NCBI GenBank assembly: GCA_964291215.2
Contig: OZ219791.1
Coordinates: 832,001-896,000 of the forward strand
Direction of reading: 5' to 3'
Length of the DNA: 64,000 nucleotides
From: Alphaproteobacteria bacterium
Lineage (GTDB): Bacteria; Pseudomonadota; Alphaproteobacteria; MPNO01; UBA830
In this document: positions 11,771 to 59,387 of the stretch, piece by piece
Position numbering within the stretch: position 1 is the first letter of the stretch
How the letters are laid out: every line of letters begins with the position of its first letter
The notes under the pieces: model-generated
The model's input: the letters and a program-made list of their open reading frames with translations, nothing else
Database searches by the model: none
What the model was told of the DNA's origin: nothing
Translations under genes and position numbers: made by a program

Positions 11771-13872
11771 GTATCTCCTCACCCCTCCGCAGAGGCGGGT
11801 TTGGCGTTGTGCATCTTGATCATGTCGGCGGCGAGTGCGATCCGGATGGCGGCTGTAGCCGAGTGCGGCCATGGAGGTGAGATAGCTTGAGCTTCGGCAC
11901 CAGGCCTCGGCGTGGAGCCGGGTTCGGAAGCATCCGGACATCTTGACCTTTGCCATCCGGATTTTCTGCTCGCCGGTGTTGTTGGTGAAGCTGACGTCCG
12001 GGTGCGCCAGGCTAACTGGTGGAATGTTGCCGGGTGCAAGTCCCGGCAGGAAGAGAGGCTAACCACCACTTTCTCCGTGAACCATGCGTCGTGAGGCGTC
12101 AGGCGAAGCGTTGGGGAGCGGCAGGCGTGGGCCGGGCTATTGAGCCACGAGATGCTTTGAAACCGGAGTGCCGAGGTCGTGGCCGAAGGCAACACCCCGC
12201 GAGCCGCGTTGGTGAGGCGAGCGGGGGCTCCGCGGGGTCCGAGAACCATGGCCGAAGCAGGGACCTGGGAGGTCTTGCCCCTCTGTCGTGGAGGGGCCGC
12301 AGAGGAAAGGAACTATTCCGTAAACCGATGATGAACGAGAAGTCAGATTCGGCCATAGTACCGCTGAAGGCAGCGAACAAAGGTTCTCCGGAGCCTGCGG
12401 AGTTGCTGGAGGGAAGGGCAATGCGATTGGCCCGCGCCGCGCGCAGAAGCGGGGGTCACAGGCGGCTGAACGCAGGTAGCGAAGAGGAACCCGGAAGAGC
12501 GTCTTTACTCCACCACGTGATGTCCTGCACGACGCGTTCCATTCCTTGAGGAAGGACGCGGCGGCGGGGCGTTGTGTGGCAAGCGTACGCGGAAGGGGTG
12601 GAACTGGTTGACCTACACGACCGTGTGCACAGGGGTGCGTACCGAGCGCCTCCAGGGTCTACATTCCCAAGGAGGATGGAGGGCAACGACCGCTTGGCAT
12701 TGCCTCGCTGGAGGACAAGATTCTTCAGCGGGCAGTGTGATTCTGGTGCCGCTCTACGAAACGGAGTTCCTCGGTTTCAGCTACGGTTTCCGGCCGGGGC
12801 GCATCACGCGCTCGACGCCGTCACGGTGGAACGGCGGAAGGTCAACTGGATCGTTGACGCCGACATCCGTGGGTTCTTCGACAATCTCGACCGCGACCAT
12901 CTGATTGCGATGCTCGAGAAACGGATCGGGGGGTTATCCGGCTGATCATCAAGTGGCTGAACGCCGGCGTCATGGAAGGGACCGACTGGCAAGGGAACAC
13001 CGCAGGGGGCGATTGTATCGCCCTGCCTCGCGAACGTTTACCTGCACTACGTGCGACTGGTTCCAGAACCACTGGCGCAAGCGGATGGCTGGAGGCGACA
13101 CGATCATTATGCGGACGACTTCGTGTGCGGCTTTCAGCATCTGGGCGATGCGCAGCGCTTTCTCCGGGACCTTGGGGAGAGGCTGGCCCACTTGAACTGC
13201 ACCCGGAAAATCATCGAGTTCGGTCGGTTTGCCAGAGCGAACCGCCGGAAGCAGGGCAAGACGTTCGACTTCCTCGGCATGACGCACTTCTGCGAACAGA
13301 CGAGGAAAGGCAGGTTCAGGGTCGGTCGCAAACCGTCTCGCAAACGGGCACCCTGCGGCGGATCAAGGGGGCCTTGCGCATGCGATGGCACGACAACCGG
13401 CACGAAACGGCCAAGTGGTGAGTTATCAACGGCTGCTACTACGCCGTCCCGGGAAGCAGTCAATCCCTGCAGGGGTTCATACACCAATGCAAACGGCTGC
13501 TCATGCGTGCCCTTCGGCGACGCTCCCAAAAGGACTTCACCGGGGACATAGACACCCTTGCCACCGCCCACTGAGCCAGCATCCGCCACCCGTGGCCAAA
13601 CCAGCGCCTTGTCGTCAGGGGAGGAGCCGGATGCGAACAGCGCATGTCCGGTTCTGTGCGGGGGGACCGGGGCAACCCGGTTCCCTACCGCAATGTCGCT
13701 CATGAAGCGCAGGACGGACTCTTCGTGCCTTGCGAGACGCTCCTGGAGGTTGTGCGCGTTCGCAATCCGTCCGCGTTTTTCTTTCTGTCGGGGCGGGATT
13801 TCAGGCAGTTCCTTCGCCCCCCTCCCCGGTCAGGATGGTCCGGTATCGCTTGATGACGCTGCGACGGTCGGC
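11771..13872 (-). mobile_element. IS66-family 3' remnant (divergent variant) interrupted by a group II intron
   Basis: Right end GTATCTCCTCACCCC at 11771; KRYRTILT, LRFMSD|PDVSFTNN..EQKIRMAKVKMSGCFRT. Confidence 0.85.
12002..13694 (+). mobile_element. Group II intron with frameshifted RT/maturase
   Basis: 5' GTGCG; domain V GAGCCGGATGCG...CGCATGTCCGGTTC (~13623-13655), domain VI and terminal AAT; RT fragments FLGFSYGFRP, WIVDADIRGFFD, YADDFVCGF, FDFLG. Confidence 0.92.
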
Positions 13873-13975
13873 CTTATATGATCAGGTTTTGTCCCCGTGA
13901 TGATGCAATCATCCACAGCGGTCGGGGGCGGGAAAATGTGGATAACCTCGACTATGGGAGAGCGCCCGGTCCATG

Positions 13976-14170
13976 GTTGCAGAGAGATTCCGCTCCCTTG
14001 TGCGAGAACGTACAGGGGAGCGGGGATCAAACGATCTCCGCGGAGGTTGCCGTTTCGCCCCTGGCCTTGCAGAGTCGTTCCCGAGCGTGGTCGGCCAACC
14101 TCCTTTGGCGTCCCTTGCGTCCTGAATGGATGCTTGGGTTTGAACCGTATCATCACAAGGCGAGGAGCAA
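13976..14170 (+). ncRNA. Putative bridge RNA of IS110 copy 1 (boundaries approximate)
   Basis: 5' hairpin; GGAGGTTG..CAACCTCC stem enclosing TCCCGAG (14079-14085, complementary to target flank CTCGGGA); second loop ATGGATGCT (14126-14134) identical to element right end. Confidence 0.8.
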
Positions 14171-14174
14171 GGGA

Positions 14175-14983
14175 TGATGGTCAAGGTAGTAGCAGGGGTC
14201 AGCAAGGCCAGTCTGGACATCTGGCGCGTCGTTTTGCGAACGACGCCACGGGCGCGTGGCTTCGCAGCCTCGAGGTGACCCGTGTGGTGATGGAGGCGAC
14301 AGGTCGCTATCACCGCAGGGTTCACCAGTGTCTTCATGACCGGGGCTTCGAGGTTGTCTTGGTCAACCCGTTGCGGGCTCGGCGCTTCGCCGAGGCGATG
14401 GGCCATCTGGCCAACCGCGTTGACGCCAAGATCGGCACGGTGCGATCTCGAGCCTGTGGCCCCTCAGGAAGCCTTCCTCAAGAGCCTAGGGGATCTCCTG
14501 GTGCCGCGCTTGTCGACGCCAGGCAAGTGGCCAAATGAGGTGGATGGCGAGACCGTCACAAGGGCCTCGGCGGCCGATCTCGATGACCGCATTGCCGGCG
14601 CGGCGATCAAAGCGGTGATCGCCGGTGATCCCGAGCAGAGGTACGCCATCCTGACCTCGATCCCCGGTCCAGTGACCGCCGCAGCCCTTCTTTGTTGGAT
14701 GCCCGAACTCGGCAGTCTCGACCGTCGTCAGGCGGCAGCCTTGATCGGGGTGGCGCCGATAGCCAACGACCACGGCGCTCGGCATATCCGAGGCGGGCGC
14801 CGGAGGCCACGTGATCTCCTGTTCATGGCCGCGACCTCGGCTGCACGCTTCAACGCGGATCTGGTGTTCGAACGCCACAAGACCGCCGGCAAGGCCCACA
14901 AGGTCGCCATTGTCGCCGTGATGCGCAAGCTCTGGCGAACACCTTGCTGCGACAGCAGCGTTGCCCGAAGCACCGGTGAGTGA
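14175..14983 (+). pseudogene. IS110 DEDD recombinase, frameshifted and internally deleted
   Basis: RuvC-like and Tnp domain motifs split over frames; the first catalytic Asp and the KTD and SG motifs appear deleted. Confidence 0.88.
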
Positions 14984-15000
14984 GCGAAGGAGACCCCCTC

Positions 15001-15438
15001 ATGGCCCTCACCTCTGCCGAGAAACAGCGCCGTTATCGGGAACGCCGCAAATCTCTGCCCACGGAAAGCCTCGTCGTTCCCGTGCGCAACGCTGGCGCGA
15101 TGCGGTGGCTCGGTGCAGTGCAGGAGCACTGTCGGGACTGTCTCGACAGTCTCCCCGACGCCCTGCGCGACACGGCTTGCGGAGAACGTCTGCAGATCAT
15201 CGTCGAGGCTGACATCGCGGATCTTGAGGACATCGAACCGCCGCGCGGCTACGGACGGGACACTTGGAACCCCATTGAACATGATAACGTTACCATGCAC
15301 GGGGACGCTGGACGGCAAGGTGGCCGCGCTCACGTGACCGTGAGCAATGGACGGCAACCCGCCGCCGGGACCACAAGCTGCATGTCGCCTCACTCGCAGG
15401 ACATCGACAAGGCGGAACCCCGGACCGCCTGTGGATAA
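15001..15438 (+). CDS. Small accessory protein inside the IS110 element (possibly partly decayed)
   Basis: RBS GAAGGAG 14986-14992; MALTSAEKQRRYRERRK...DIEPPRGYGRD; deleted homologs at the same position in copies 2-4. Confidence 0.6.
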   Translation: MALTSAEKQRRYRERRKSLPTESLVVPVRNAGAMRWLGAVQEHCRDCLDSLPDALRDTACGERLQIIVEADIADLEDIEPPRGYGRDTWNPIEHDNVTMHGDAGRQGGRAHVTVSNGRQPAAGTTSCMSPHSQDIDKAEPRTACG

Positions 15439-15495
15439 CCACAGAAAAAATTACCGCGGACACCCGCAAAAACCTTGCCTGGAAACATGGATGCT

Positions 15496-25626: not shown

Positions 25627-26101
25627 CCGCTGTCGCAAGGTGATCCCATGCTTGTTGATGTGATGTGATCGGAGTCCTGATCGCGGCGCGGGTTGACGCG
25701 TTCGAGGCTGCGATTTTGAGATTTGCTGACGCGCTGTTGCGGCGCGGGGTGCGATTGGTCGACCTATCCGGGGCGAGCGAGAGGCCTTGGTTGCCGGGCT
25801 CGAAAGCTTGCGGTTTCTGTCGGGGAGAGAGGCGCGGTCAGCCTGGTCTCGTGATTGCGTGCAGGACCTGCTTGCGCTTGTCCGCATGGTTGTGTCGACG
25901 AAGCTGTTGAAGGGTTTGGTCAGCTTGCGCTTGTTGTGGATGATGACGGCGATTGCGAGGGTGATCGCGTTGTTTGCGAACGCGTTCGGAGCATGGAGTC
26001 GTCTTCGCGGAAGGTGGCATCGCGGACATGATGATGGCTCTCGACTACCCAGTGTCCGCGATTCCATGCGAGCAACTGTTGCGGCGAGGCGCGTTCGACC
26101 G

Positions 26102-27457
26102 AGCATCCATGTTTCTTGGCAAGGTTTTTGCGGGTGTCTGTGGTGATGTTTTCTGTGGTTGTCCACAAGCGGTATGGGATTTGCTCTGCGATCGAGGCGA
26201 CATGAAGCTTGTGGTCCCGGCGGCGGGTTGCCGTCCATTGGTCACGTGAACGCGGCTACCTTGCCGTCCCCGGGCACGTGACCGTCCGGGTTCCAGGTGT
26301 CCCAAGGCGGTTCGATCTCCTTGATGTCGACCTCGACGATGATCTGCAGACATTCTCCCCAAGTCGTGTCGTAGAGGGAGACTGTCGATACAGTCCCGAT
26401 CGCGCTCTCGGCAGGGGTGAGGGCCATGAGGGTGGTCTCCTTCGCTCACTCACCGGTGCTTCAGGCAACGCTGCTGTCGCAGCAAGGTGTTCGCCAGAGC
26501 TTGCGCATCACGGCGACAATCGCGACCTTGCTTGCCGGCAGTCTTGAGGCGCTCGAACACGCTTGCCAGGTCCGCGTTGAAGCGGGCCGGTTGCGGCCAG
26601 GAGATCGCGTGGCCTTCGGCGCCCGCCACGGATGTGCCGAGCACCGTGGTCGTTGGCGCCACCCCGATCAAGGCTGCCGACGCTGCCGAGTTCGGGCATC
26701 CAGAAGGGCCGCGGCGGTCACCGGACCGGGGTCAGGATGACGTAGCTCTGCTCGGGATCACCGGCGATCACCGCTTTGATCGCCGCGCCGGCAATGCGGT
26801 CATCGAGATCGGCCGCTAAGGCCCTTGTGACGGTCTCGCCATCCACCTCATCTGCCACCTGCTTGGCGTCGACAAGCGCGGCACCAGGAGATCCTCCAGG
26901 CTCTTGAGGAAGGCGGAGCCACAGGCTCACCGTGCCGATCTTGGCGTCGAAGCGGTTGGCCCATCGCCTCGGCGAAGCGCCCGCAACGGGTTGACGAGAA
27001 TAACCTCGAAGCCCCGGTCATGAAGACACTGGTGAACCTTGCGGTGATAGCGGCCTGTCGCCCACCACCCGGCTCACCCCGAGGCCGCGAAGCCACCTGC
27101 CCGTGGCGTCGTCCGCAAAACAATGCGCCAGATGTCCAGACTGGCTGACCCCTGCTACTACCTTGACCATCGTCCCTTGCTCCTCGCCTTACGATGGGTT
27201 CAAACCCAAGCATCCATTCAGGACGCGAGGGACGTCAAGGGAGGTTGGCCGACCACACTCGGTCGCGGCTCTGTCAAGGTCGAAATGGCAACCTCCGCGG
27301 AGATCGTTTGATCTCCGCTCCCCTGTGCGTGTTCGCTCAGGGAAGCGGAATCTCTCTGCAACCATAAACCGGACGCTCTCCCACAGATCCACATTTCCCC
27401 GCCCCCAACTGCTGTGGATGATTTCATCATCAAGGGGACAAAACCTGGTCATATAAG
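26102..27457 (-). mobile_element. IS110 element copy 2
   Basis: CT core at both junctions; homologous to 13873-15495. Confidence 0.9.
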
Positions 27458-27526
27458 GTCATGGCGTGTTCGGTTTTCCGGATTTCTTGAATTCGACGTG
27501 CCGAGTGACGCGGAAGATCTGCTTGA

Positions 27527-34600: not shown

Positions 34601-35060
34601 CAAGGTGATCCCATGCTTGTTGATGTGATGTGATCGGAGTCCTGATCGTGGCGCGGGTCGACGCGTTCGAGGCTGCGATTTTGAGATTTGCTGACGCGCT
34701 GTTACGGCGCGGGGTGCGATTGGTCGGCGTATCCGGGGCGAGCGAGAGGCCTTGGTTGCCGGGCTCGAAAGCTTGCAGTTTCTGTCGGGGAGAGAGGCTC
34801 GATCAGCCTGGTCTTGTGATTGCGTGCAGGACCTGCTTGCGCTTGTCGACATAGTGGTGTCGACGAAGCTGTTGAAGGGTTTGGGCAGCTTGCGTTTGTT
34901 GCGGATGATGATTGCGAGGGTGATCGCGTTGTTTGCGGGCGCGTTCGGAGCATGGAGTCGTCTTCGCGGAAGGTGGCATCGCGGACATGATGATGGCTCT
35001 CGACTACCCAGTGTCCGCGATTCCATGCGAGCAACTGTTGTGGCGAGGCGCGCTCGACCG

Positions 35061-37671
35061 AGCATCCATGTTTCTTGGCAAGGTTTTTGCGGGTGTCTGT
35101 GGTGATGTTTTCTGTGGTTGTCCACAAGCGGTGTGGGGTTTGCTCTGCGAGCGAGGCGACATGAAGCTTGTGGTCCCGGCGGCGGGTTGCCGTCCATTGG
35201 TCACGTGAACGCGGCTACCTTGCCGTCCCCGGGCACGTGACCGTCCGGGTTCCAGGTGTCCCAAGGCGGTTCGATCTCCTTGATGTCGACCTCGACGATG
35301 ATCTGCAGACATTCTCCCCAAGTCGTGTCGTAGAGGGAGACTGTCGATACAGTCCCGATCGCGCTCTCGGCAGGGCCGTGTCTCCTTCACTCACTCACCG
35401 GTGCTTCAGGCAACGCTGCTGTCGCAGCAAGGTGTTCGCCAGAGCTTGCGCATCACGGCGACAATCGCGACTTTGTGGGCCTTGCCGGCAGTCTTGAGGC
35501 GCACCAGGTCCGCGTTGAAGCGTGCCGGTTGCGGCCAGGAGATCGCGTGGCCTTCGGCGCCCGCCACGGATGTGCCGAGCACCGTGGTCGTTGGCGCCAC
35601 CCCGATCAAGGCTGCCGACGCTGCCGAGTTCGGGCATCCAGAAGGGCCGCGGCGGTCACCGGACCGGGGATCGAGGTCAGGATGGCATACCTCTGCTCGG
35701 GATCACCGGCGATCACCGCTTTGATCGCCGCGCCGGCAATGCGATCATTGAGATCGGCCGCCGAGGCCCTTGTGACGGTCTCGCCATCCACCTCATCTGC
35801 CACCTGCTTGGCGTCGACAAGCGCGCCACCAGGAGATCCTCCAGGCTCTTGAGGAAGGCGGAGCCACAGGCTCAAGATCGCCCAGCCGATCTTGGCGTCG
35901 ACGCGGTTGGCCCATCGCCTCGGCGAAGCCCGCAACGGGTTGACGAGAATAACCTCGAAGCCCCGGTCATGAAGACACTGGTGAACCTTGCGGTGATAGC
36001 GGCCTGTCGCCCACCACCCGGCTCACCCCGAGGCCGCGAAGCCACTTGCCCGCCAGCTCGTGGCGTCGTTCGCAAAACAATGCGCCAGATGTCCAGACTG
36101 GCCTTGCTGACCCCTGCTACTATCTTGACCATCGTCCCTTGCTCCTCGCCTTACGATGATACGGGTTCAAACCCAAGCATCCAGCGAGGGACGTCAAGGG
36201 AGGTTGGCCGATCACACTCGGTCGCGGCTCTGTCAAGGCCAAGGTCAAAACGGCAACCTCCGCGGAGATCGTTTGATCCCCGCTCCCCTGTGCGTGTTCG
36301 CTCAGGGGAGCGGAATCTCTCTGCAACCATAGCTCTCCCACAGATCCACATTTTCCCGCCCCCAAATGCTGTGGATGATTTCATCATCAAGGGGACAAAA
36401 CCTAGTAGTCTAACATTATTGGATTGACGAATATAGTGACTTCAGTTTCGTCCGGGCATCCTTCGTCGTGAAACGCCAGTCGACAGTGACATCGGCCGCA
36501 TTGCGGCGCTCGACCCACGCCACGGTCTCCCGCAGCATGGTGTCGCGGTCGGGAATGCGTCGCCGAAGGCATTGCCGCGACAGCGCGCCGATCTCGATCT
36601 CGGCCATGTTGAGCCAGCTTCCGTGCTTCGGCGTGTAGCGAAACTCGAACCGCTTTCGCACCCGCCTTCTCGGGCTCGAAGGCTTCATACAGCGACTGTG
36701 CGTGTTCAGATTGTCCAGCACGATCTTTCTGTCGGGGAAATGGTCGTCGGCAAGCTCCCGGATGAAGTGCGCCCAGTCCCGCGGCGGTCGGTGACTTTCA
36801 CCGTGCGCCAGTTCTCGTTGGGCGCAAAGGCCATGAAGAGGTTGGCCGTGCCGTTGCGCTCATATTCATAGTCGACCACCTCCGGCTGACCGGGGGATAC
36901 GGGTTTCCTGCTGCCGGCTGGTCTCGCACACCAGCACCTCGTCCTTGGCAAAGTCCCGCTGATAAGTGTCAAGCACATCCTCCATCGCCGCTACGAACTG
37001 TGCGCTCCGGTGCGGTGGAATGCACCAGTTCAGCCACGGCTTGATCTCTTTTTTTAGCGTCTTCCTGACCGTCTCTTCCGAAATGCGCTCGACGATCTCC
37101 ACCAGACGGCCGGCGAGCAGCTTCAGCGGGCACAGCCCTCGGGCGGGGATGAGCAGGCTAGGGCGACCAGCTTCGCTTCCATCGCCCCGTCCAGCCGTTT
37201 CGGCCGACGGTTCACCTGCTCCTTGCGGCTGAGGGCGGCGTCCAGCCCCTCCAGAACGCAGCGCTTGCGCAAACGCTCGACCGTCGCCGTGCCGATGCCC
37301 AGCCCTTGCGCAATGTCGGCATCGACAAGCCGAGCGCCCCCTCGTCAGCCAGCATCAGGATTTGTGCCCGGCGCCGACGCCAGGCAGCCCCGGTGCCGTC
37401 GACAATCGCCTTCAGATCCCGGCGCTCCTGCGCCGAAAGGGTCACGCGGTAGAGCTTCCTGCCCCGAGAGTTGGCCATATGCGCTGCTCCTGTCATTGCG
37501 CCGAAGACCTGCGGGCATGCCCGTTGTCCGGACCTGCGCATGGGGCTGCCTGCCTGTTCGGCATCTGCCCGTGTGGATATCGGCACTGTCCGGATTCCAA
37601 CGAACGCCGACACGGAAATACTACCCACCAAAACCATCAATACAATGCCGGTGGACTACTAGTCATATAAG
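35061..37671 (-). mobile_element. IS110 element copy 3, with IS630 inserted near its left end
   Basis: CT cores at 35061-2 and 37670-1; same ISAs1 site as copy 2. Confidence 0.9.
36402..37662 (-). mobile_element. IS630-family element copy 3
   Basis: CTAGTAGTC...GACTACTAG ends; homologous to copies 1 and 2. Confidence 0.92.
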
Positions 37672-57762: not shown

Positions 57763-59208
57763 ATATGACTAGGTTTTGTCCCCTTGATGATGAAATCATC
57801 CACAGCAGTTGGGGGCGGGAAAATGTGGATCTGTGGGAGAGCTATGGTTGCAGAGAGATTCCGCTCCCTTGAGCGAACACGCACAGGGGAGCGGGGTGCG
57901 GGGATTAAACGATCTCCGCGGAGGTTGCCGTTTTGACCTTGACAGAGCCGCGATCGAGTTTGGTCGGCCAACCTCCCTTGACGTCCCTCGCTGGATGCTT
58001 GGGTTTGAACCCGTATCATCACAAGGCGAGGAGCAAGGGACGATGGTCAAGGTAGTAGCAGGGGTCAGCAAGGCCAGTCTGGACATCTGTGCGACGGGCA
58101 TTGTTTTGCGAACGATGCCACGAGCTGGCGGGCAGGTGGCTTCGCGGCCTCGGGGTGAGCCGGGTGGTAATGGAGGCGACAGGCCGCTATCACCGCAAGG
58201 TTCACCAGTGTCTTCATGACCGGGGCTTCGAGGTTATTCTCGTCAACCCGTTGCGGGCGCTTCGCCGAGGCGATGGGCCATCTGGCCAAAACCGACCGCG
58301 TCGACGCGTTGATGTTGGCCAAGATCGGCTGGGCGATCTCGAGCCTGTGGCTCCGCCTTCCTCAAGAGCTTGGAGGATCTCTTGGTGCCGCGCTTGTCGA
58401 CGCCAAGCAGGTGGCAGATGAGGTAGATGGCGAAGGCGAGACCGTCACAAGGGCCTCAGCGGCCGATCTCGATGATCGCATTGCCGGCGCGGCGATCAAA
58501 GCGGTGATCGCCGGTGATCCCGAGCAGAGGTACGCCATCCTGACCTCGATCCCCGGTCCGGTGACCGCCGCGGCCCTTCTTTGCTGGATGCCCGAACTCG
58601 GCAGCGTCGGCAGCCTTGATCGGGGTGGCGCCGATGGCCAACGACCACGGTGCTCGGCACATTCGTGGCGGGCGCCGAAGGCCACGTGATTTCCTGTTCA
58701 TGGCCGCAACCGGCCCGCTTCAACGCGGACCTGGTGCGCCTCAAGACTGCCGGCAAGGCCCACAAGGTCGCGATTGTCGCCGTGATGCGCAAGCTCTGGC
58801 GAACACCCTGCTGCGACAGCAGCGTTGCTGGGCGCCTGAAGCACCGGCACGGTAAGTGAGCGAAGGGGACACCCTCATGGCCCTCACCCCTGCCGAGAGC
58901 GCGATCGGGACTGTATCGACAGTCTCCCTCTACGACACGACTTGGGGAGAATGTCTGCAGATCATCGTCGAGGCCGACATCAAGGAGACCGAACCGCCTT
59001 GGGACACCTGGAACCCAGACGGTCACGTTACCATGCCCGGGGACGGCAAGGTAGCCGCGTTCACGTGACCAATGGACGGCAACCCGCCGCCGAGACCACA
59101 AGCTTCATGTCGCCTCGCTCGCAGGGCAAATCCCACACCGCTTGTGGACAACCACAGAAAACATCACCGCAGACACCCGCAAAAACCTTGCCAAGAAACA
59201 TGGATGCT
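57763..59208 (+). mobile_element. IS110 element copy 4 (left junction eroded by a small deletion)
   Basis: Homologous to copies 1-3; retains AKTDRVD; right end ATGGATGCT. Confidence 0.88.
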
Positions 59209-59387
59209 CGGTCAAGCGCGCCTCGCCGCAACAGCTGCTCGCATGGAATCGCGGACACCGGGTAGTCGAGAGCCATCATCATGTCCGCGACGCCACCTTC
59301 CGCGAAGACGACCCCATGCTCCGAACGCGCCCGCAAACAACGCGATCACCCTCGCAATCATCATCCGCAACAAACGCAAGCTGCCCA

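Follow-up and report, generated by a model that had tools for sequence, protein, structure and literature searches.

The open reading frame that follows the recombinase of an IS110-group element in the window (the whole stretch of 64,000 nucleotides analysed here) is real, but the copy is dead; it belongs to a cassette that looks regulatory. The reading that we prefer, and to which we give about an even chance, is that a 96-aa gene, broken in the window, was captured by several unrelated insertion sequences together with a palindromic DNA site, and that its product would be a small DNA-binding repressor that binds the palindrome and damps the carrier. Bridge recombinases are in development as genome-editing tools, and their natural control has so far been explained by the junction promoter and by RNA–DNA geometry. 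If our reading is right, control would have a further, portable layer in the form of a protein repressor, adopted independently by several IS110/IS1111 lineages and by IS21, IS66 and IS3. Beyond transposition, the analysis assigns a specific predicted binding site to a large protein family that lacks annotation, and links the helix–site pair to phage replication origins.

The IS110 Element and Its Decay

The features of the element are listed in Table 1. Three tested features, as follows, establish that the carrier is a true IS110-group bridge-RNA element. First, the recombinase of intact relatives matches NCBIfam NF033542 with 213 bits, against a cut-off of 140, and has PF01548 and PF02371 intact. 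Second, the CT cores were placed where identity among the genome copies stops, the flanks beyond being different, and a CT core flanks both ends in all 33 parsable copies of the 57 full-length ones. Third, over 59 copies, 88% of positions in the right target guide fit the flank, with which the guide covaries, and the donor guides match the element ends. The bridge RNA region folds well in the relative L064 (z −3.4); Rfam gave no match in five loci. When the ends are joined, they are predicted to form a promoter-like TTGCC(A/T)-17 nt-TATGA(T/C), and a promoter assembled from joined ends is the layout that PMC11208160 describes for IS621. A promoter scan of L064, an intact element, returned no sigma-70-like site. 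Intact elements are about 1.85–1.97 kb long.

Table 1. Features of the IS110-group element, in window positions.
Feature	Position	Strand	Basis or remark
IS110-group element, decayed copy	13873..15495	+	left CT core 13873-13874, right CT core 15494-15495
-10-like hexamer TATGAT, predicted circle-junction promoter	13877..13882	+	sequence; function predicted from IS621 (PMC11208160)
Predicted bridge RNA, left end	13890..14170, limits approximate	+	guide-flank match; fold of relative
Bridge RNA target guides	near 14053-14062 and 14078-14085
Bridge RNA donor guides	near 14125-14135 and 14152-14160
IS110 recombinase pseudogene	14177..14983	+	PF01548 and PF02371 in different frames; alignment to intact relatives
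Ribosome-binding site GAAGGAG	14986..14992	+	sequence; retained in intact relatives
Accessory gene, damaged remnant of 96-aa protein	15001..15264	+	reads on to 15438
Palindromic site 1, candidate operator	15283..15294	.	GATAACGTTACC in window copy; GGTAACGTTACC in relatives
Palindromic site 2 remnant, left part deleted	15332..15339	.	spacing to site 1 is 52 nt in most of the intact relatives
-35-like hexamer, predicted junction promoter	15475..15480	+	TTGCCT in window copy, TTGCCA in most copies; predicted function

Several target-guide variants coexist in the window's source genome (G000), each fitting its own flanks, a natural reprogramming of the bridge RNA. Three nonamers (13909–13917, 13937–13945 and 15430–15438), which we take to be DnaA-box-like, are placed at +37, +65 and −66 relative to the cores in the majority of parsed relatives and are absent from seven of seven checked cassette-free recombinase loci; the two left nonamers could alternatively form an RNA stem. 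Just upstream of the IS110 copy, at 12500–13690, is a decayed reverse-transcriptase-like element that by eye resembles a group II intron.

Compared with an intact relative at about 92% identity, the window copy has 30 gaps. Its recombinase gene retains 798 of 948 nt, split over frames, and the first catalytic Asp codon is deleted. The accessory ORF is missing 7, 6, 6 and 5 nt in the linker segment, which puts roughly residues 18–36 out of frame and destroys a conserved DRRSRxQRW motif. A further 7-nt gap takes out the stop codon, so that the frame reads through to 15438 and gives 145 aa. The ORF of the window copy is a pseudogene of the 96-aa gene that intact relatives encode, and the 145-aa read-through and the core of about 87 aa named in the sequence-only reading are products of this decay. 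Other details of that reading hold. The ribosome-binding site stands before an ATG at 15001, from which the peptide MALTSAEKQRRYRERRK...PPRGYGRD is found; the N-terminus is basic and the C-terminus acidic (net charge +5 over residues 1–18 and −8 over 41–88); and the ORF lies inside the element, ahead of the right-end core. The 17-nt gap to the recombinase stop exists in the window, where a TGA at 14981–14983 precedes the ATG by that distance, but this stop belongs to a frameshifted frame, and in intact relatives the gap is 13–31 nt.

A search for the element in the 6.15-Mb source genome gave 82 match clusters, 57 of them full length. None of the 57 has a whole accessory gene or a whole recombinase gene (at most 822 of 948 nt), and the GIDV codons are kept in two. 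Most of the accessory ORF is retained in 10 copies, and the other 47 share large deletions in it. The three further copies in the window (26099–27458 and 35058–36403 on the minus strand; 57763–59211 on the plus strand) each keep 119–128 of the 291 nt of the accessory gene, in line with the deleted versions first noticed there. The 47 short copies have also spread, without the accessory gene and its sites; since every copy has a dead recombinase, their spread does not show de-repression.

Assembly error was considered as the source of the deletions and rejected: contigs from three public runs, all of one study and one of them perhaps the source sample, show the same short-variant junctions and cross the deleted stop. 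The same kind of deletion appears there, so the deletions lie in the DNA. Each of the 57 copies has 30–54 gaps relative to the intact relative, many of them common to dozens of copies. Among 192 distinct deletions, 90 are of 5–7 nt and a second peak is at 12–14 nt; microhomology is slight (mean 1.15 vs 0.76 by chance). Marker-gene completeness of the genome is 99% despite the widely shared deletions. The pattern suggests that deletions arose by an unusual process and that dead copies then spread or were converted.

The Accessory Protein Family

A profile or structure search of the core had been proposed as a check, and the ORF is more than a chance reading frame. A word search gave 68 homologues at E ≤ 0.001, most of them 93–99 aa, and a profile search extends the family to 1,624 clusters at the same threshold. 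In 12 IS110-borne accessory genes (65 pairs), the median dN/dS is 0.20, falling to 0.07 over the helix (first 16 codons); in the same four elements, dN/dS is 0.13 for the accessory gene vs 0.33 for the recombinase. Judged by these codon comparisons, the accessory gene of intact IS110 relatives is under purifying selection.

For an intact member, the predicted structure (pLDDT 90) shows a basic helix at residues 5–17, a linker, and helices at 34–57, 67–77 and 80–84. The helical hairpin is followed by a PPRGYGRD end. No Pfam family is matched by the window ORF; 58 members give only weak, scattered Pfam matches, the best being DinB_2 at E 0.0018, with no bZIP family at E ≤ 1. NCBIfam matched none of five accessory proteins, and PADLOC none of four at E ≤ 0.1. 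Two of four accessory proteins match PHROGs, in both cases only phrog_10506, of unknown function. The family profile finds nothing among PDB sequences at E ≤ 10, and ESM Atlas matches are hypothetical clusters only. A fold search with the damaged window model gave generic helical hairpins (best Z 6.3), and BFVD gave no match at E ≤ 0.001 for either the window or the intact model. A literature search of main texts without supplements, with few subscription papers and with ISfinder outside its scope, found no description of the accessory family or the palindrome. The family is thus large and without a curated name, and its pairing with the palindrome is new here.

Its distribution is patchy. The family was not found in four congeners or in 25 genomes of the same taxonomic family, and it is present in three of 400 other genomes of the class; two queries of the PLSDB plasmids gave no match. 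Three chromosomal-looking frames of 95–101 aa (L135–L137) have the same N-terminal helix, a different C-terminus and GTAAC half-sites upstream.

A Palindromic Site Beside the Gene

Across carriers, the accessory gene is accompanied by a palindrome of the form GTNAC-GTNAC. The counts come from two sets of loci, each taken from the best 80 of a longer match list and for that reason a biased sample: a genome set of 75 loci from 11 genomes, and a metagenome set of 79 loci from a more distant subfamily. In the present clade, GGTAACGTTACC lies about 25 nt past the stop codon; most IS110 copies have two such sites, spaced 52 nt apart, and IS21 copies a single one. A loose form of the site just after the gene is found at 71 of the 75 loci of the best-80 genome set, including 29 of 29 IS110 loci, vs 5 of 1,084 control windows; the pattern was fitted to those same 75 loci, many of which are copies, from 11 genomes. 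The core TAACGTTA occurs 11 times in the 6.15-Mb source genome, 10 of these within the element or its fragments.

In the distant subfamily, CGT(T/C/G)ACGT(A/G/C)ACG is mostly found some 10–35 nt before the start codon. The strict pattern lies upstream of the start in 56 of 78 loci of the best-80 metagenome set, and in 67 with a looser pattern; control windows gave 0–2 of 55–79 and shuffling a mean of 0.085. A conserved palindrome at a fixed position beside the gene is the arrangement expected of an autoregulated repressor–operator cassette. Overlap of the site with a promoter-like sequence is seen by eye in several free-standing members, where the site fills the 17-nt spacer between TTGCAA-like and TAGAAT-like hexamers, and is absent in the present lineage. 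Measured from the right core, the two sites of this lineage lie at about 180 and 230 bp, which places them about 155–205 bp upstream of the −35 hexamer.

Some variation in the arrangement is seen. Two loci, L074 and L075, carry the gene and have no downstream site. In L004, L006, L013 and L064, the palindromes lie within a longer inverted repeat, with TTGAWC before site 1 and GATCAA after site 2, and L002–L005 have a duplicated unit with four sites. A strict K/R-to-site code, in which AEKQ would go with GGTAAC and AERQ with CGTTAC, is suggestive, but L102, L103, L401 and L442 are exceptions.

A Proposed Role for the Cassette

The co-occurrence of helix and palindrome suggests that the N-terminal basic helix would read the half-site in a bZIP-like manner, as a dimer, and we regard this candidate interaction as quite probable. 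That the cassette would exert negative feedback on its carrier is, to us, an evenly balanced proposition. In most members, the site stands before the gene, and the protein would directly repress itself plus the downstream parts of the element, namely, istB, the tnpC of IS66, or the non-coding region in which the IS1111 bridge RNA probably lies. In the present lineage, the protein would be the last product of the transcript that starts at the circle-junction promoter, after which it would sit on the right end. Since the sites of this lineage do not overlap the junction promoter, simple occlusion fails, and a roadblock or loop must be supposed. Occupancy of the right end would, in turn, restrain the burst of bridge RNA and recombinase that comes from the circle, a negative feedback that is the weakest step of the proposal. 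The recombinase would need no accessory protein for chemistry or direction.

Carriers and Repeated Gain of the Gene

The accessory family is not specific to IS110; it is also carried by IS21, IS66, IS3 and distant IS110/IS1111 lineages. Within the best-80 genome set of 75 loci, the gene follows the present IS110 recombinase at 29 loci (nine genomes), IstB at 11 (three genomes) and an IstA-IstB-Toprim element at 28 (one genome), with seven having another or no recognised upstream gene. The 28 copies in one genome (L023, L026–L051 and L056) belong to an element resembling IS21, in which istA and istB are joined by a Toprim gene and the accessory gene. Among the 79 loci of the best-80 metagenome set, the upstream gene is of IS21 at 24, IS110/IS1111 at 17, IS66 at three, IS3 at two, a serine recombinase at two, an interrupting IS1380-type gene at two, and other or unknown at 29. 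One candidate carrier was rejected: L001 had looked like carriage by a large serine recombinase, but its protein is a fusion, through a deletion, of the recombinase and accessory gene of the IS110 element. Another distant IS110-like lineage (L077, L081, L083, L085 and L087, in G275; about 30–37% over short stretches) has a divergent accessory gene followed by CCGTTACGTAACGG-type sites.

The point at which the cassette joins its carrier differs. It may follow the recombinase or istB, or stand on either side of the right-end non-coding region; in an IS1111 lineage, it lies between the recombinase and the right-end non-coding region. It also stands inside operons, between tnpB and tnpC in IS66 and between istA and istB in one IS21.

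Relatives of the carriers can lack the gene. It was found in none of 28 loci with recombinases 29–55% identical to that of the present lineage, three of which have almost no downstream sequence, and in none of 30 loci of IS1111-type relatives of a soil carrier. Two IS1111-type relatives at 60–64% identity keep the same downstream non-coding region without the cassette. On a recombinase tree of 28 rows, the carrier label needs five changes and a single carrier clade is rejected (p-AU about 3e-60), a rejection obtained after 11 cassette-free IS1111 relatives were added; an earlier AU test without these controls did not reject one origin (p 0.37). In the accessory-protein tree, built from a short alignment in which four rows are less than half filled, IS110 and IS21 carriers are intermingled. 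IS110-family lineages gained the accessory gene more than once.

Carrier switching of this kind raises the possibility, which we consider less likely than our preferred reading, that the cassette is a self-regulating passenger: the protein likely binds the site, and would regulate just its own gene or genes of the host, leaving transposition unaffected, insertion sequences merely carrying it at junctions that tolerate inserts. Switching is frequent by this measure: on the protein tree, which uses the same short, partly filled alignment, 11 changes of the IS110 label are needed, and strong branches force at least four of them. The 29 of 79 loci of the best-80 metagenome set without a recognised transposase upstream, the existence of cassette-free relatives, and the commonness of cargo-bearing IS110s (bioRxiv 10.64898/2026.08.14.744561) agree with this explanation. 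It fits less well with the direct coupling of the gene to transposase operons, even between their genes, and with the stronger selection on the accessory gene than on the recombinase. Moreover, the sites of the present lineage follow the gene and cannot autoregulate it, yet two are retained at a fixed spacing. The sequence-only reading had held that simple cargo capture would show as homologues mainly in unrelated elements together with loss of the ORF from intact relatives. On the first count, homologues occur with like frequency in IS110 and in other elements, IS21, IS66 and IS3 among them; on the second, the nearest more distant recombinases lack the gene, and close intact relatives keep it, from which it follows that the gene is not inert cargo.

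The Basic Helix and Phage Replication Initiators

Besides members of the family, proteins on viral contigs that share only the helix (L107, L108, L130 and L131) have the site or half-sites just upstream. In a reverse test, 104 viral loci were chosen only for GCGTTACGTAACGC, and 26 of them, representing about 12 distinct proteins, have such a helix 15–160 nt before the site; equal control windows gave 0–3. Eleven of 13 tested helix–site viral proteins match phage replication-initiator families. With the present lineage's own form of the site, CGGTAACGTTACCG, the helix was found at only one of 120 viral loci, a result that counts against a simple shared code. In a number of initiator genes (L369–L463 and L276), GTTACGTAAC-type repeats lie just after the basic helix and encode NVT, ALRNA and RYVT linker peptides.

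The likeness to initiators allows another reading of the cassette. The protein might bind the iteron-like repeats that lie within replication genes of phages and impede their replication; alternatively, phage initiators might bind the sites of the element and switch it on during infection. In favour of this reading, phage replication-initiator genes contain a similar helix ahead of one form of the palindrome, and a benefit to the host would explain repeated capture by unrelated elements. The pairing at one of 120 viral loci for the lineage's site form speaks against it, as does the PADLOC result for the four proteins, and we consider the proposal unlikely. In its fullest form, which seems to us improbable to the same degree, bridge-RNA and DDE elements would repeatedly have captured a miniature initiator mimic without replication domains, one that jams phage origins or couples transposition to infection, and that would be a bacterial counterpart of bZIP recognition. 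Two further points count against the repressor reading that we prefer: the iterons of phage initiators could in truth be bound by another domain, next to which the helix merely lies, and the basic-helix motif is short and low in complexity, so that convergence can occur.

Very unlikely, in our judgement, is a third bridge component, e.g., a directionality factor that contacts the recombinase or bridge RNA and favours excision. Many excisionases are small and basic, like the accessory protein, and the gene is directly downstream of the recombinase in the 29 loci of nine genomes and the 17 of 79 metagenome loci counted above (best-80 sets). A recombination directionality factor would be expected to be dedicated to one recombinase type, and the accessory gene is common to IS21, IS66 and IS3, near-identical proteins accompanying these DDE transposases with their different chemistry; there are also sister recombinases without the gene. 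IS621, in turn, excises and inserts with recombinase and bridge RNA alone, and its directional bias is explained by the recombinase–RNA complex, DNA geometry and handshake guides (PMC13626964). The earlier suggestion of a three-component bridge system with a regulator or directionality factor is thereby divided: a regulator is plausible, given a conserved and selected gene with a candidate operator, but an IS110-specific third component or directionality factor is not supported.

Comparison with Known Systems

The proposed repressor–operator cassette carried by an IS110 element can be set beside several known systems. IS621, as described in PMC11208160 and PMC13626964, shares with the present element the CT core, the left-end bridge RNA with guides that match donor and target, a recombinase with PF01548 and PF02371, and a joined-end promoter, which is predicted here. 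IS621 is 1,279 bp long vs about 1.85–1.97 kb for the intact present element (the window copy is dead), and the present element differs by an extra 96-aa gene and paired palindromes between the recombinase and the right end.

The statement that characterised IS110 elements encode only the recombinase and bridge RNA is dated, since IS110 elements with cargo have been described in bioRxiv 10.64898/2026.08.14.744561. These resemble the present element in having added coding sequence inside the element ends. Their cargo, according to the same source, is adaptive genes (resistance, defence) gained by expansion, whereas what recurs here is a single small gene accompanied by a candidate site of its own, which IS21, IS66 and IS3 have too.

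RptR, the repressor of a restriction-modification island (PMC12255303), is a small all-helical autorepressor that binds short palindromes in a bZIP-like manner. It binds TAGCTA by a C-terminal helix, whereas the accessory protein would use an N-terminal basic helix on the candidate site GTNAC-GTNAC. RptR is unrelated and may serve as a functional analogy only.

Phage replication initiators and replisome organisers (PHROGs 9474, 10469, 3926, 2447 and 1408) have a like basic helix, E-R/K-Q-x-R-Y/F-R, with GTTACGTAAC-type repeats 15–160 nt past the helix, inside the gene. These initiators are about 300 aa long with further domains, and the accessory proteins do not match their PHROGs profiles. 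We take GTTACGTAAC to be the PAR-bZIP consensus. The likeness to eukaryotic bZIP proteins lies in a basic helix with N-x7-R spacing in many members (NAERQARYR). The two differ in what follows: in the model, the accessory helix at 5–17 is predicted to be followed by a linker, which separates it from the helix at 34–57, and a helical hairpin instead of a continuous leucine zipper.
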